DNA of 37,167 bases from Draconibacterium orientale (GTDB lineage: Bacteria > Bacteroidota > Bacteroidia > Bacteroidales > JAADGE01). The position numbers and the translations under genes were made by a program. The notes beneath the pieces were generated by a model that saw nothing but the letters and a program-made list of their open reading frames with translations, was not told where the DNA came from and ran no database searches. Shown here piece by piece: positions 20,067 to 29,029 of the stretch. How positions within the stretch are numbered: position 1 is the first letter of the stretch; every line of letters begins with the position of its first letter. The stretch lies in the NCBI GenBank assembly GCA_020718265.1, contig DYSM01000001.1:1-37167 (forward strand), written 5' to 3'.

Positions 20067-20555
20067 TTGAATATGAAACTTATCAATACCACAACAGGTA
20101 CAGTTATTGAAATCACCGACGTAAATAACACTCTCAATCGCGTTGTTTTCGTTACGCAAGAATTCAACAGCGTGAAATCGCCTTGTAAGGCGAATTCTCA
20201 TACTTATAATAATTTCAGCATCAATGCAGCTTATAACATTGAATCAGCCTTGATACGACTATGTTACGAAGCATTGAAATTGGAAGTATTTCCGACGTTC
20301 AAAGTATCGGAAAATGAGAACTGGCTGTTCCCGTTGCGTCCGATCCGCGTGTATATTCCGGACGGAATTGTGAAATCGGCAACAAACTCCGGCAATGCGC
20401 TCGGTCAATTGCTTATGGCAATGCAGTCGGATATTCCGGCTGAGTTCCGAAAAGCGACAGAAACAGGTGTAGTAACTTATCTTGAATTACTATTGCCGGA
20501 ACATCGCGCAATTATGGAGGCATATCCAGAAATTATTTTAGAAGAAAAAGCTTAG
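20067..20555 (+). CDS. hypothetical protein
   Basis: 162-aa ORF following the fibre gene. It converges on the integrase stub with a 4-nt overlap. Confidence 0.5.
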   Translation: MNMKLINTTTGTVIEITDVNNTLNRVVFVTQEFNSVKSPCKANSHTYNNFSINAAYNIESALIRLCYEALKLEVFPTFKVSENENWLFPLRPIRVYIPDGIVKSATNSGNALGQLLMAMQSDIPAEFRKATETGVVTYLELLLPEHRAIMEAYPEIILEEKA

Positions 20556-20815
20556 AACTTACCGGCTTTTCTCATGATTTGCGAGTTCGCAGTCTTTTTA
20601 GCGTGCAGGGCATAGATACTTGTTATTTCAATAGAGCTATGCCCTGCTTGCTTTGCCACTTCATCATGGCTTATGCCGTCACGAAGCATCTGGATTATAC
20701 CTGTATCGCGCAGGCTATACATGTGATATTCAGGTTTCAGCTTCAAATCTTTTCGGAGCTGTAACCATCTGCGACCTGCGTATTTTGTCTGTTTTTCATT
20801 CATACCTGGTTTCAT
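20552..20815 (-). pseudogene. tyrosine recombinase (phage integrase) C-terminal fragment only
   Basis: The 87-aa ORF contains 'YSLRDTGIIQMLRDG...AKQAGHSSIEITSIY'. This is the box II region, with an H-x-x-R-like element, the GHS histidine and the catalytic Tyr. The roughly 200-300 N-terminal residues of a normal integrase are absent in all three upstream frames. Confidence 0.7.
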
Positions 20816-20917
20816 TTTGTCCGAAAACGCACATTGATTTTCAGCATATTATAAATGCAACTTTTGTAATATTTGCATCATTTTGTGCCGATTTCATGCC
20901 GATATTGCGGCTATAAT

Positions 20918-21271
20918 CTACTGTTTTTCAGTAGGCTTAATGATATTGTCAGTCAATATCTTCTTAATTTCGATTACTTCTTTCAATACTTTCCGAATAT
21001 CAGTTTCTTGCTGTATAGACTTCTTATACTCTGCGATTTCTTCGCTAACAATGCTTTTTTGTTCTGTTGTTTCATATTCATTCGGGTATTCTTGAAATAA
21101 TTCTTCAAGGCTCATTGGTAGTAACTTAGAGAGTATTTCTATCTTTTCGCTCGGCATCCTTCTTTCGTTTATATAATTCTGCTATGTGCTGGCTGAAATC
21201 TCAAGTACCTCACTTATTTGTTTTGACGTATAGCGTTTGAATTTTACAACCTTCTCAATATTAGCGGTATT
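20918..21271 (-). pseudogene. XRE-family HTH repressor-like gene interrupted by an in-frame TAG and lacking an ATG
   Basis: Hand translation of the minus strand gives NTANIEKVVKFKRYTSKQISEVLEISAST*QNYINERRMPSEKIEILSKLLPMSLEELFQEY... This is a contiguous HTH_3-like domain with TAG at 21182-21184. Only the distal 79 aa (20918..21157) form an ATG-initiated ORF. Confidence 0.55.
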
Positions 21272-21275
21272 CTAT

Positions 21276-21343
21276 TTTACTTAATTTAGAATAATTCTTA
21301 ATTAAGTAAATATTTACTTTAAATTTTGTTTTTACTTATTTAA
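21276..21343. promoter_or_regulatory. operator-like TTTACTT(A/T) repeats in the divergent intergenic region
   Basis: An 11-bp inverted repeat tttacttaatt (21276-21286) / aattaagtaaa (21300-21310). Direct copies of tttactt lie at 21313 and 21331. The region sits between the decayed repressor (-) and the early genes (+). Confidence 0.45.
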
Positions 21344-21385
21344 TTCCGTATTTAGCGATTAATTTAAACGTTTAAATTATTTCGC

Positions 21386-21748
21386 ATGGACAAAGAAAAT
21401 GAAAATAATCGGATTTGTAAAAGCGATTACACATCTGAAAATCTTCCGCCGCTTATTGCCGGGAAATATTTTGGTATCATTCCGCCGGATGGACGTAAGG
21501 ACATGTTCAAATGGCTCAACCAATTCTTAGGGGAAATGGGCGAAATGAACTATCAGACTTGGAAAGGACGGTTTCATAATCCGAAATTAATTCCGACAAA
21601 AAAACAAGGAATGATTATCGCAATAATGGAAGATGCGCTTGCGCTGCAACTGTATAAGTTAGCAGAATCAACAACAAAAGTAATATCCGATGCTTCGGAA
21701 TTGCAAGTGAAAATAAGAAAAGCAATATCCGAGTATGAGCAAGAGTAA
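21386..21748 (+). CDS. hypothetical early protein
   Basis: 120-aa ATG ORF, the first + strand gene after the divergent region. Confidence 0.55.
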   Translation: MDKENENNRICKSDYTSENLPPLIAGKYFGIIPPDGRKDMFKWLNQFLGEMGEMNYQTWKGRFHNPKLIPTKKQGMIIAIMEDALALQLYKLAESTTKVISDASELQVKIRKAISEYEQE

Positions 21749-22574: not shown

Positions 22575-22860
22575 CTATTTCGTATTTGTGAAAGCCGATT
22601 CCGAGATTGATGCAGAATGGGCAAATATATTTGAGCCAAAAGAAATTGAAGCTCAAATCGACGAAAAAAAGGCTGTTATCAGAATTGAAGATTATCACAA
22701 AATCCATTTCAGCATGTTGCAATTGGTAGAATTCATTATCAAACTCTGTTTCGGAGTTGATATTTCCGAATTCAAAAAGTTACTTGTTAAGAAATACGGC
22801 TCTGAAATTCAGACACATGATATTTATTTTGGCTTATACAAATTAATTGAAATCGAATGA
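22537..22860 (+). CDS. hypothetical early protein
   Basis: The track ORF starts at 22504. The in-frame ATG at 22537 (MKPLKIKS...) reduces the overlap with the upstream gene. The stop overlaps the primase ATG. Confidence 0.45.
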   Translation: MKPLKIKSQNTHNYFVFVKADSEIDAEWANIFEPKEIEAQIDEKKAVIRIEDYHKIHFSMLQLVEFIIKLCFGVDISEFKKLLVKKYGSEIQTHDIYFGLYKLIEIE

Positions 22861-25800
22861 TACAGGTATCCACCATAAACCACTTGAAATCAATCGTCAA
22901 GATTGAAGATGTCGTCGGCGATTTCATTAATTTGCGGCGAAAAGGCACAGCACATCTCGGACTTTGTCCGTTTCACAACGAAAAAACCCCGTCATTCTCG
23001 GTATCTCCGGCAAAAGGCATCTACAAATGTTTCAGTTGCGGCGAAAGCGGCAATGCGTTCAGTTTCGTAATGAAACACGAAGCAATGAATTATCCGGAAG
23101 CAGTGAAATGGATTGCGAAAAAATATAACGTTCCCGTTGCAGAATCAGAATCCTCCGACGATGCCGCTCGCCGAACGCACAAGGAAAGCCTTGCAATTGT
23201 TACTGAATTTGCACAGAAAGTCTTTCTACATTCGTTCGATAAATCCGCAGCACACCAATATATGAGCATTGAGCGCGGTTTCAATGCTGAAATTTTGCGC
23301 GATTTCAATATCGGCTATGCGAAAGATGATTGGCAATTCCTGAGCGTTGCCGCACTTAAACGCGCATACAAAGCTGAATTATTGACGGAAAGCGGACTTT
23401 CCGGAACCAAGAAAACAGACGGCTCACTATATGACCGTTTCCGAAATCGCGTTATGTTTCCGTATTTCGATTTATCCGGAAAAGTTATCGGTTTTACAAG
23501 CCGTATTCTTACCGCCGACAAAAGCGAAGCGAAATACATAAACAGCTCAAATACAGAGCTTTTCGACAAAAGCAAAATACTTTTCGGCTTATTTCAGGCA
23601 AAAAAAGCGATTGTTGCCTACGATGAGTGCTTCTTAGTTGAAGGCAATACCGACGTGATGCGTTTCCATCAGCTCGGCATTGCGAACACCGTTGCCACAT
23701 CCGGAACCGCTCTGAGCACTATGCAAGTGAAACTGATTCAACGCTTCACATACCACGTGATTCTGCTGTTCGATGCCGATAATGCCGGCAAAAATGCGGC
23801 AATGAAAAGCATTGACAAGTTTCTTTCCGAAGATTTCGTGGTTAATGTTTGCATCCTGCCCGAAGGCGAAGACCCGGACAGCTTCGGTAAGTCGCGCACA
23901 AAGGATGAAGTGTTGAATTATATTCTTGAAAACAAAGTTGATTTCTTTGAATTTCAGGCGAAAACGCTGTTGAACGGCAGCGTTTCCGCAAAAGATATTG
24001 TGAAAGTTGCCGAAACCATTGCAACCTCAATTTCATTCATTGACAATGAAGCCGAACGTATTATTTTGAGAAAAAAACTTTCTCAAAAATTCGGCATCGA
24101 AGAAAAGCTCCTTGACAAAAAAACTGCAAAACTTTCCGAAGAAAAAGAATGCGTTATAGGCTTTTTTGCCTGGGAAGAAGCGAAGGAAGCTATCAAGGAA
24201 AAGAATGTTGCAAATCTGGTTTTTTCTAATGATTTCGTTATTGAAAAGCATTTCAATAACGAACTTAACACTGTCGGATTCACAGAAAATACAGCTTATT
24301 CATATTTCAATGAGCTGCATAAGCTTACGAAAAATATTAGCGTTTCAGAATCGCTTGGGCAATTTGATTTGATTGATACAAACGGAGAAACGAAGCTTTT
24401 GAAACTTTTCAAGCAACTTATTTCAGTTGGGTTTAACCTTGAGATTACATATTTCAATGAGATCGACGATAAAGAAGATACTACTTCATTCATTGACTTC
24501 TATTTTGAACTGCAAATAGGTTCAATCAAAGGTAGTAATGATAAGTCTAAGAAATCAGCAATTGAGAAATCCGCAGAAATAATATCATTCTTATCTGAGA
24601 CTGAGCGGATGTTAAAAATTAATCATGTTGTTTCAAGATTCAAAAGTAATGGATATGTCATCAATCAAGGCGATTTCAAAAAGATCGTTTCAGATTATCT
24701 CAAAGAGAACCAACGTTCCGATAATAAGGAAGTTACCATATATGCGAATAATCCGCACGGATTGACGAAAGAACAGCTCGAATCGCTTGACAAATACGGC
24801 TTGTTTGAGAAAGATAATCAGTTGTTTTTCGAGGAAAAAAGCGGCGGTTCTGTTCCTTATTCTAACTATATTATTCGCCCGCTCTTCCATATAGAAAGCA
24901 TCAACGAAACGCGCAAACTATTTGAAATCATAAATTTCAAGAACGAAAAACAGATTATCGAAGTTGATATTGAAAGCATGGTCAAGATTGACAAATGGCA
25001 AATATTCTGCGAAAGTAAAGGCAATTTCCTTTTTTGGGGAGACAAAACGAAATTCACTCGATTGAAACAACGCCTGTATGCCGATACGAAATTTTGCAAG
25101 AATATCGAAAACTTAGGCTGGCAAAAGCAAGGTTTTTGGGCATGGGCGAACGGAATTGTGTATGAACGTCAGTTTGTGCCTGTGGACAGTTACGGAACTG
25201 TAACCGTCCTAAATACGAATTATTACATCCCTGCATTTTCGGAGTTGTACAAACATGATAGAACAGTATTCAAGGCTGAGCGCAAATTCGTTCGCAAACC
25301 GCAAGACATTTCGTTTTTTCAATGGTCTGAAAAGTTCATTTCTGTCTATGGTGAAAATAGCAAACTATCTACCTGCGCACTGCTTACGTCTGTGTTTTCG
25401 GATTATATTTTTTCGATTACTGGGAACTTGCCTTTGGTAAATTTTTTCGGTGTGAAAGGCACCGGAAAAACAGAACATGCCAAGAGTCTGCTTAACTTTT
25501 TCGGAGATGAGCAGAACCTGCTCAACATTCACAAAGGCACGGAATATGCCGCCGCAGTGCACATGGAGAATTTCAAAAACGCATTTGCATTGATTGACGA
25601 GTATAAGAATTCGTTAGACATCAATAAGTTGGAATATCTGAAATCTATCTATAACCGCGACGGACGTGTGCGCGGTTCAATCAAGGCAGGAATTAAGACC
25701 GAAACGACACAAGTTAATTCCATGGCATTACTGTGCGGTCAGGAAATGCCGACGGCGGATGTCGCCTTGTTTTCGCGTCTTGTTTTCCTCCCTTACTATA

Positions 25801-26594
25801 ATCCGGAATATTCGCAAACGCAAAAAAACAAGTTCAATGAACTGAAAGCGATTGAGAAAAAAGGATTAACACACTTAGTTGAAGAGCTGCTCGGATTCCG
25901 TTCGCTTATTGAAAAAGAATACGAACAAACGTTCTACGATGTTGAGAAGGATTTGTCGGAGCAAGTATCTTCGTCGGTGGACGGGCGATTGATTAAGAAT
26001 TATGCGATTCTTATAGCGACATTCAAGATATTGGAATCGCGCGTGAGTGTCGCGTTCAAATACGAAGATGTGTTTCAACTCTCACTGAATCGCATTCGTG
26101 AGCAATATACGATTATGAACAGCTCCAACGAAGTCAGTGCATTCTGGGAAAGCCTTGTATCTCTTGCCGAACGCGGCATAATTCGACACGGCGATAATTA
26201 CCGAATCATTGACGAAATCTTCATCACCTTGCTTGTGAAGAATGGTGCATCAACGGAAGAAAAGAGATTTGATTTCTCAGGCTACAAAAACGGAAGTAAG
26301 CAAATATTGTATCTGAAAATGAGCACAATCTATAATTATTATGCCGAACTGTGCGCAAAAACGCGACAAGAAATTATGCCGAAACGCTCGCTTGAATATT
26401 ACATCGAACACAGCAAGACCTTCTTAGGTCGCTCGAAAAGCACACGCTTCGACAACGTAACCACAGGTTGGGCATTTGACTACGATATGCTCGGCATTGA
26501 CCTCAGCAGCCGTAACGATACACTGCAACCATATCACGAAACTCCGCAACCACTTCCTAACTATGAACCAAAAGATGATAATTCACCATTCTGA
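22857..26594 (+). CDS. DNA primase / P-loop helicase fusion protein (DnaG-type zinc finger + TOPRIM + C-terminal NTPase)
   Basis: CHC2 zinc finger '[30 protein letters not shown]'. TOPRIM 'LVEGNTDVM...TSGTALS...[13 protein letters not shown]'. Walker A '[12 protein letters not shown]' and Walker B 'FALIDEY' lie in the C-terminal half. 1245 aa. Confidence 0.9.
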   Translation: [1245 protein letters not shown]

Positions 26595-27975: not shown

Positions 27976-28461
27976 ATGAAAATTAATATAGAAAATCAAA
28001 CAGTTTTGCAAGCAAATATATTAGTAGATGCAATCGAAAATTTTTTTTTAAAAAAATCGGCAGAGTTTGAAAAACTAACTTATTATTCTTCTTCTTATGA
28101 AATATCAAAAAGAACATTTAACGAATACAATTTAGATGAAATGATAAGGAACTCCGATATATTCGCTTTTTCTGCAATGTTAATCAAAGATTTAGTTGAA
28201 CTAACAATTTATAAAAAATTATACAAACTTAATTTAGAAATAACGAAAGAATATCATAATAAAATCGGGGCATTACAACATAGAGAATGTCATTCTGAAA
28301 TAGAATTTGTTGAAAAAGTTTATAAATTCATTAAACCAATAATTGCTAAAAAATTAGAACTATATTTAATCAAATATAATTTCGTAGAAAAATGTGTTTG
28401 GATTGATGAATTTAAAAGTGATTTTTCAAGTTTAATAAAATTATTTGATAATCCTATTTGA
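27976..28461 (+). CDS. hypothetical protein, very AT-rich moron-like gene
   Basis: 161-aa ORF, K/I/N/E/L/Y-rich and predicted helical. It has its own upstream spacer and a strong terminator downstream, and is flanked by inverted repeats. No motif was recognised. Confidence 0.55.
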   Translation: MKINIENQTVLQANILVDAIENFFLKKSAEFEKLTYYSSSYEISKRTFNEYNLDEMIRNSDIFAFSAMLIKDLVELTIYKKLYKLNLEITKEYHNKIGALQHRECHSEIEFVEKVYKFIKPIIAKKLELYLIKYNFVEKCVWIDEFKSDFSSLIKLFDNPI

Positions 28462-28462
28462 T

Positions 28463-28494
28463 TACCGATAACGGCAAATAATAGCCGTAATGCC
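28463..28494. repeat. right arm of the inverted repeat bracketing ORF 27976..28461
   Basis: taccgataacggcaaataatagccgtaatgcc begins 2 nt after the stop codon. Confidence 0.65.
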
Positions 28495-28520
28495 CATACT
28501 AAGCTCACTCCACTATCTTC

Positions 28521-28550
28521 AAGCCTCGCCAACTCGGCGGGGCTTTTTTT
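28521..28550 (+). terminator. rho-independent terminator
   Basis: aagcctcgcc - aactc - ggcggggctt 10-bp stem with one G-U pair. The terminal tt runs into a T tract through 28550 (nine consecutive T, 28542-28550). Confidence 0.8.
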
Positions 28551-28611
28551 GTGTATTTTGTTTTTGTAATTTTTGATATTTTTATTTTCGCGTTCAAATT
28601 ATAAAATTCGC

Positions 28612-28860
28612 CGGCTACACCGGCTACAGCTCCGACAAAATGTAAGTTGTTAATATTTAATATATTATATTAATTAGAATACTAATAACTGAAGCTATTC
28701 TGAAGCCGCTGTAGTTTTAGTAATTAAATACAAACATGTCTGAAATAGTTTTGTAGTTTTTTTAAGTTTCAAAACTACAGGTTTTTTACATGTATTTCAA
28801 ATGTCTAAGCGTTTTTAATCCTTATTTTCAGATAGTTGTATTTTTGTAGTTCTTGTAGCT
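28612..28860. repeat. TGTAG-core repeat field in ORF-free DNA (iteron/operator candidates)
   Basis: Forward TGTAG at 28710, 28752, 28845 and 28854. Reverse CTACA at 28615, 28624 and 28775. Tandem cggctaca at 28612 and 28621. A 9-bp palindrome tgtagtttt (28752-28760) / aaaactaca (28771-28779) is followed by ggtttttt. Confidence 0.6.
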
Positions 28861-29029
28861 GGCGTAGGTGCACTTTTAAACTATTTTATAGAAACTAAAA
28901 TAAATGTTTTTGTTGGTGTTTTAAGTCTAATAATTACTACACAATAAATCTATATTTTTGGGGATCGTTACATACAACTAAACTTGTTAATAACTCACAA
29001 TAACTTTGCGTTTTGAGATGCTTATTTAT

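Follow-up and report, generated by a model that had tools for sequence, protein, structure and literature searches.

A probable relic of a lysogeny module in an uncultured Bacteroidota-type siphophage

Can a phage that still carries a recognizable integrase gene have lost the ability to form lysogens? The question is raised by a minus-strand locus at 20552-21274 of phage contig C322 (DYSM01000001.1), from a metagenome-assembled genome (MAG) of 626 contigs filed under Draconibacterium orientale, where a short open reading frame (ORF) with an integrase match lies next to an interrupted, repressor-like gene. The window referred to throughout is the stretch of DNA analysed, that is, the first 37,167 bases of this 40,595-base contig. 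We conclude, with good confidence, that the locus preserves the non-functional remains of a leftward lysogeny module, ordered repressor, attachment site (attP) and integrase, in a formerly temperate phage lineage, and the phage is probably no longer able to lie dormant in its host. The original prediction of a decayed lysogeny module in a once-temperate lineage was thus borne out: integrases of this family are normally full length, intact modules occur in the related viral contigs L027 and L028, the integrase stub and the stops upstream of it are common to two lineages, and the repressor is broken at a different codon in each.

Integrase stub and the interval missing upstream of it

The ORF at 20552-20815 (minus strand; 87 amino acids, aa) was assigned by its Pfam match and by family alignment. 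It covers only positions 108-170 of the 172-position Phage_integrase profile PF00589 (32.8 bits; cut-off 27.1) and corresponds to the last ~23% of a tyrosine integrase of ~380 aa, in agreement with the C-terminal catalytic segment that had been predicted. When 1.84 billion representative proteins were scanned with phmmer, the stub being the query, the best matches were integrases of ~375-385 aa with up to 62% identity over their last ~80 residues, among them the 379-aa protein P0006, residues 296-376 of which align with the stub at 62% identity; a PDB sequence search with the stub alone gave no match. With the catalytic motifs mapped through the family profile onto XerC-like 4a8e, the stub was found to retain YSLRD (Arg II), GHSS (His III) and SIY (the Tyr nucleophile), its YSLRDTG motif having Tyr at the His II position as throughout the subfamily. 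Missing are Arg I, the beta-hairpin Lys and a complete catalytic domain (the 'LLRPkEI' and 'sKN' motifs of full-length relatives are absent), as well as ~290 N-terminal residues that include the arm-binding and SAM-like core-binding domains; no sequence for either of these domains occurs in any frame of the window, where only ~100 nucleotides (nt) separate the stub from the previous gene. Because Arg I, the beta-hairpin Lys and the N-terminal DNA-binding domains are missing, the stub would be unable to act as a recombinase. Its ATG corresponds to an ancestral internal Met codon (compare 'DRMFPG' in P0006 and other full-length proteins), and a six-frame hmmsearch of the 40.6-kb contig gave the stub as its only match, with no second integrase. 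A candidate terminator within the stub was discarded, the hairpin at 20579-20592 being no better than chance and the T-run not being kept in the sister lineage introduced below.

Full length is the norm in this integrase family: 78 of the 80 best viral-contig loci encode 375-420 aa, and the two short ones belong to the sister lineage (87 aa) and to a tandem partial copy. At locus L045 287-2269 (IMGVR_UViG_3300033463_000285), a full-length 398-aa integrase has, in the same orientation and ~400 nt beyond it, a partial second copy (129-149 aa). The viral contigs L027 and L028, which share the unusual fused primase-helicase of the window phage (27-32% identity), carry at the corresponding site an intact 129-133-aa helix-turn-helix (HTH)/coiled-coil gene, a spacer of 91-168 nt and a 383-412-aa integrase with SAM-like domains, and this module is divergent from the primase operon. 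Furthermore, a 103-146-aa HTH/coiled-coil gene lies directly upstream of int in 14 of 25 sampled family loci, and the order of repressor then integrase, on one strand at the boundary between tail genes and early operon, is the same in the window, in L027, L028 and L108, and in Polaribacter phage Leef_1.

The original prediction held that no integrase-like sequence exists upstream of the stub in any frame, and this had to be corrected. In the frame of the stub, 20816-20881 (minus strand) is an untranslatable integrase remnant of ~22 decayed codons, whose read-through 'MMQILQKLHL*YAENQCAFSDKM' aligns, across an in-frame TAA at 20849-20851, with residues 272-293 of P0006 ('LIKYIKALQLEQYDIKDYVFSDRM'). 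The whole remnant aligns with P0006 residues 272-376 at 54% identity (E 4e-35), and in the six-frame hmmsearch the match reaches profile position ~70, two stops falling within it. The same TAA is present in lineage B, the only other lineage found, which is ~97% identical to the window. Homology to full-length integrases begins only at ~20881; the deletion junction, 20882-20917 (minus strand), contains a TGA at 20894-20896 and has neither integrase nor repressor homology. No more than ~36 nt separate the repressor stop (20918-20920) from integrase residue ~272; by comparison with the relatives, a stretch of ~0.9-1 kb was therefore deleted, made up of the repressor-int spacer, where attP would have lain, and ~270 integrase codons.

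The position of attP was approached through the family. In integrated members, int is preceded at a distance of 100-150 nt by a gene for tRNA-Pro or tRNA-Met. In free forms such as L081 and L047, the spacer between repressor and int contains 15-19 nt that repeat the 3' end of tRNA-Pro. The family attP thus appears to lie between repressor and int, the interval that is missing in the window; no copy of the tRNA-Pro 3' end was found in the window module. The search among relatives for an intact module and its attP thus yielded the modules of L027 and L028 and the attP-like copies in L081 and L047. The 3' end of the stub overlaps by 4 nt the convergent last gene of the late/tail block (20067-20555, plus strand), as had been noted; the corollary that this leaves no room for an attP fell, as the family attP lies upstream of int and the same 4-nt overlap is found with the intact integrase of L028 and with the integrase of Leef_1 (the arrangement is also that of L108). 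The overlap is therefore ancestral and uninformative on attP.

Repressor relic and the divergent control region

Upstream of the junction, 20918-21274 (minus strand) appears to be a former gene for an XRE-type repressor of ~117 aa, with an HTH domain and a coiled-coil tail. The C-terminal two thirds remain as a 79-aa ORF (20918-21157), which comprises the last HTH helices and a long predicted helix and starts at an internal Met; it is called as a gene in public assemblies, is 96% identical in lineage B, and corresponds in alignment to the C-terminal half of the 103-146-aa HTH/coiled-coil proteins encoded upstream of intact integrases. The N-terminal HTH part (21158-21271; 38 codons) lacks a start codon and has a TAG at 21182-21184 inside the recognition helix. 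Another TAG occupies the start-codon position (21272-21274), where lineage B (loci L007-L010) has TTG, with a TAA two codons upstream of it. No ATG, GTG or TTG lies between the two TAGs, and an intact translatable ORF was not found.

The interruption by TAG, the preceding stop and the lack of an ATG were as first described, while the label of a textbook HTH_3 domain was not upheld, all single-sequence Pfam HTH matches being below the gathering score (the best, HTH_19, 22.3 against 30.2 bits; HTH_26, 18.8 against 22 bits). The assignment to repressors came from other comparisons: the HTH part was matched by the PHROG regulator/repressor families 8, 3 and 4 (E 7.5e-8 to 5.5e-5), HTH_26 matches were obtained in 8 of 15 aligned positional orthologues, and a profile of the positional orthologues, which included the read-through window sequence, matched the XRE repressors SinR, P22 C2, ImmR and lambda CI in the PDB (E 1e-9 to 1e-3). 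Alignment against known proteins recovered ~380-aa integrases for the stub and, through the orthologue profile, XRE structures for the repressor-like part. A single-sequence AlphaFold2 model of the read-through repressor was of low confidence (pLDDT 50), showing the expected helices, with a helix at 69-110, and was too poor for a fold search; a scan of metagenome contigs with the same read-through sequence found nothing, although close relatives may be masked in it.

The module faces the early operon across a divergent control region of 111 nt (21275-21385; 16% GC), which the original prediction had called operator-like, a description that the counts support. In this spacer, three palindromes have perfect arms of 8 nt or more, a number reached by 6 of 5000 shuffles, and the spacer carries four of the window's seven TTTACTT/AAGTAAA half-sites. 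A 35-bp palindrome with 17-nt arms (21276-21310) adjoins the repressor start, followed by a perfect 16-bp palindrome (21304-21319) and a perfect 20-bp palindrome (21360-21379). In the 35-bp palindrome, 17 of 17 arm positions match in lineage B and 16 of 17 in the window, through a change at 21299. Since the operators have been kept despite a dead repressor, the palindromes are probably still used by an early-operon protein.

Order of events and the fate of the leftover frames

The order in which the module decayed was read from lineage B, whose module has the same sequence in each of four independent assemblies (IMG/VR UViG_3300000236_000003, GCA_020721145.1 of 42.3 kb, and the Logan run contigs of SRR1559353 and SRR404114). 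Lineage B has the same integrase remnant as the window, with the same TAA and TGA, and the integrase was therefore lost before the two lineages split. The repressor differs at three minus-strand codons: at 21272-21274 the window has TAG and lineage B has TTG, a usable start two codons after the TAA; at 21182-21184 the window has TAG and lineage B has TGG (Trp); and at 21173-21175 the window has TAT (Tyr) and lineage B has TAG, three codons (9 nt) downstream of the TAG of the window. Because the disabling codons differ, the repressor was still intact at the split and was then broken separately in each lineage. The simplest ancestor we infer reads TTG ... TGG CAG AAT TAT, an open gene of 117 codons with 'STWQNY' in its recognition helix; P0010, in which a related HTH is fused to an integrase, has a Trp near the same recognition-helix position ('TTVWRW'). 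Among the 15 segments compared between the lineages, non-synonymous divergence peaks in the HTH part (pN 0.066; ratio of non-synonymous to synonymous divergence, pN/pS, 1.5), all counts being small.

It may be asked whether the stops and the truncation are artefacts of assembly or sequencing that conceal an intact module, the window being one contig of a fragmented MAG. However, the truncated integrase, with the same TAA and TGA, stands in four other independent assemblies, and the TAG of lineage B is identical in all four. Assembly error is thus unlikely for the stub, on which five assemblies agree, and for the lineage-B stop; for the window, the artefact would require two separate base errors, each giving TAG. 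We consider an intact true module very improbable.

An equally slight chance attaches to the reading that the TAGs are genuine but are decoded as sense codons, whether by a suppressor tRNA or under a TAG-reassigned code, and still allow a full-length repressor to be made, perhaps conditionally. Some Bacteroidota phages do reassign TAG, and all three disabling changes across the two lineages are TAG, never TAA or TGA; given single-step mutation paths, however, three TAGs would be expected by chance about one time in four. TAG serves as the stop of 8 of the 35 long ORFs, no in-frame TAG occurs within the genes of 1245 and 1335 aa, tRNA genes were found neither on the contig nor in the record of the relative, and none of the 31 tRNAs detected in the MAG has a CUA anticodon. 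One of the two window TAGs replaces the start codon, which read-through could not repair, and a working repressor would still leave integrase and attP gone. TAG recoding or suppression was rejected on the grounds of stop-codon usage and because no suppressor tRNA was found.

On the reading of the locus as a dead module, the ancestor, as reconstructed from the relatives, would have encoded a CI/XRE-like repressor of ~117-130 aa with an HTH domain and coiled-coil tail, a spacer of ~100-170 nt (90-170 nt in relatives) with an attP in the form of a tRNA 3'-end copy, and a tyrosine integrase of ~380 aa whose stop overlapped the last tail gene, all transcribed away from the palindrome-rich control region. 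In a first step, common to both lineages, the deletion of ~0.9-1 kb took the spacer and ~270 integrase codons, which had encoded the arm-binding domain, the core-binding domain and, within the catalytic domain, the half with Arg I and the beta-hairpin Lys. Some 110 codons were left, in which the acquisition of a TAA produced the 87-aa ORF from an ancestral internal Met. In a second step, separate in each lineage, the now useless repressor was inactivated, by TTG to TAG and TGG to TAG changes in the window and by a TAT to TAG change in its sister. With neither integration nor repression through the module, the behaviour of the phage would be obligately lytic, and the 79-aa and 87-aa ORFs are most likely leftovers that gene callers pick up.

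An alternative is that these ORFs were domesticated, the 79-aa fragment, with its last HTH helices and dimerising helix, as a truncated regulator, for example one that is dominant-negative towards the repressors of related resident prophages, and the 87-aa stub in a new role. Each has an ATG start and an uninterrupted frame in the two lineages and all five assemblies, the operator palindromes have been kept beside them, and the 79-aa ORF has 3.5 synonymous against 3.5 non-synonymous changes (pN/pS 0.22); the substitutions in both ORFs are nevertheless too few to tell constraint from chance. The 79-aa fragment lacks the recognition helix, the ATGs of both ORFs are ancestral internal Met codons, the short homologues in the protein scan are of scattered size (58-253 aa), and no diverged family with the boundaries of the leftover ORFs was found, a word-based search for equally truncated proteins with shared boundaries having returned lineage B only. 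Domestication is accordingly unlikely. More doubtful still is that the nonsense mutations themselves were selected, the repressor having become harmful after the loss of int and attP through abortive, non-heritable repression, and the 79-aa fragment having been kept as an anti-immunity factor that forms mixed dimers with the repressors of resident prophages. A test for selection between the two lineages had too few substitutions to decide.

A conserved mini-integrase family was also considered and rejected, given the scattered sizes of the short homologues, the full length of 78 of the 80 best viral loci and the singleton status of the closest fusion. That fusion (P0005), L108 8001-8762 (JGI 3300063142 Ga0598273_0000546), lies at the same tail/early boundary in another phage and joins in frame, within 253 aa, an XRE HTH_3 domain (above threshold) and a complete integrase catalytic domain; it is a singleton among 376-aa relatives and may have arisen by deletion or may be a recombinase whose DNA-binding domain has been exchanged. 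Further HTH-integrase fusions are P0010 and P0054. With the 87-aa stub, the 157-aa stub of Leef_1 and the HTH-integrase fusions side by side, the repressor-int interval appears to collapse repeatedly in this phage group. Separately, P0012, P0046, P0050 and the Leef_1 protein P0003, all of 157-159 aa and 28-45% identical to the stub, start just before Arg I at '(M/L)LxYYxxIRPxEI', shared boundaries that hint at a conserved form of ~158 aa consisting of the catalytic domain only.

Several points weigh against the reading of a dead module. Both leftover ORFs are open in both lineages, and their pN/pS values (0.42 for the stub, 0.22 for the 79-aa ORF) would allow weak constraint, although they are not distinguishable from neutrality; with two lineages only, at ~3% divergence, tests of selection have no power. 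The two TAGs of the window rest on a single assembly, and the position of attP was taken from relatives and not from the ancestor of this phage. The lifestyle, moreover, is read from sequence alone, and a plasmid-like or pseudolysogenic carrier state is possible; no partition genes were recognized among the proteins scanned.

Genome setting and comparison with known systems

Contig C322 has no bacterial flanks. Its last kilobase repeats its first ~150 bases in two pieces (39840-39923 corresponding to positions 1-84, and 40509-40578 to 82-151; ~99% identity) separated by an insert of ~585 bp, which suggests a complete phage genome, circular, circularly permuted or terminally redundant, with a strain-variable insert. 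Around 36996-37322 of the contig lie 55-nt repeats, and 37168-37267 reads as N. In the window, every sizeable non-overlapped ORF is on the plus strand except the stub and the 79-aa ORF, as the original prediction had observed, and the module sits where the tail genes give way to the early operon. The rightward early operon opens with a 120-aa gene without a family match (21386-21748, plus strand) and leads to the 1245-aa primase-helicase (22857-26594, plus strand). Over its first ~430 residues, the latter shows 42-46% identity with chromosomal DnaG from essentially all host-family genomes, which suggests the host lineage as the source of the primase domain. No match was obtained when the phage collection was searched at the DNA level. 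Related prophages were sought with the primase in 25 host-family genomes (24 besides the MAG), where only host DnaG was found and close relatives may be masked, and in the species-representative genome collection, where one unrelated match was the only return and near-identical records may be masked.

The closest comparison is with the cultured Polaribacter phage Leef_1 (MT732473; Helgolandviridae; ~37.5 kb), which is collinear with the window phage (portal 30%, adaptor 26%, protease 31% and last gene 28% identical). Leef_1 likewise has a minus-strand pair between tail genes and early operon (L107 17391-18144; Leef1_17, 'integrase', and Leef1_18, 'DNA-binding protein'), in which the integrase is truncated at its N terminus: the syntenic protein has 157 aa, covers Pfam positions 30-170, lacks the core-binding domain and has Lys for Arg II. 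Unlike the window phage, Leef_1 keeps almost all of the catalytic domain and a DNA-binding gene of 72 aa that is still open, and it has a second, complete Xer-like recombinase of 287 aa in its early region (28136-28999). Integrases in Helgolandviridae have been taken as a sign of temperate potential (Bartlau et al., PMC8776804), and the label of Leef_1 as potentially temperate may be based on the wrong gene. The original remark that lifestyle-prediction tools would be misled here proved apt, because the stub passes the Pfam integrase threshold and public gene calls tag it PF00589, so that predictors would call the window phage temperate; what has been published on related flavobacterial phages probably includes inferences with the same annotation problem.

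With the tRNA-targeting integrases of ~380 aa from Bacteroidota phages (P0006, those of L027 and L028, and Porphyromonas gingivalis prophage integrases such as BK068108), the stub shares 37-62% identity over their last ~85 residues, the motifs YSL(R/K)D(T/S)GI and AxHSS, the catalytic Tyr, and genome position and orientation; unlike them, it is no functional member. Similarly, the former repressor resembles the XRE/Cro-C1 repressors (P22 C2, the N-terminal domain of lambda CI, SinR and ICEBs1 ImmR) in the match of its orthologue profile to their HTH domains and in its place adjoining int and facing the early operon, but the window copy is without a start codon and has a nonsense codon in the recognition helix, and its C-terminal part is a single long helix with no peptidase S24 domain.

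Deletion of the lysogeny module is a well-known route from temperate to lytic growth, exemplified by mycobacteriophage D29 relative to L5 and by the Sfi21-type deletion derivatives of Streptococcus thermophilus. As in such lytic derivatives, the module of the window phage was lost or inactivated by deletion and point mutation, the rest of the genome is intact and the operators remain. Unlike them, the locus preserves both steps, a shared deletion of int and attP and then independent nonsense mutations in the repressor in two sister lineages, and its host is Bacteroidota-type and uncultured, the lifestyle being predicted from the genome. What is offered is a modest addition, a new instance of a known route, by ordinary gene decay, in an uncultured Bacteroidota-type siphophage; its added value is that the order of events is visible, giving an ordered example of a temperate Bacteroidota siphophage lineage that probably became lytic, in which integrase and attP were lost first and the repressor was lost in parallel.

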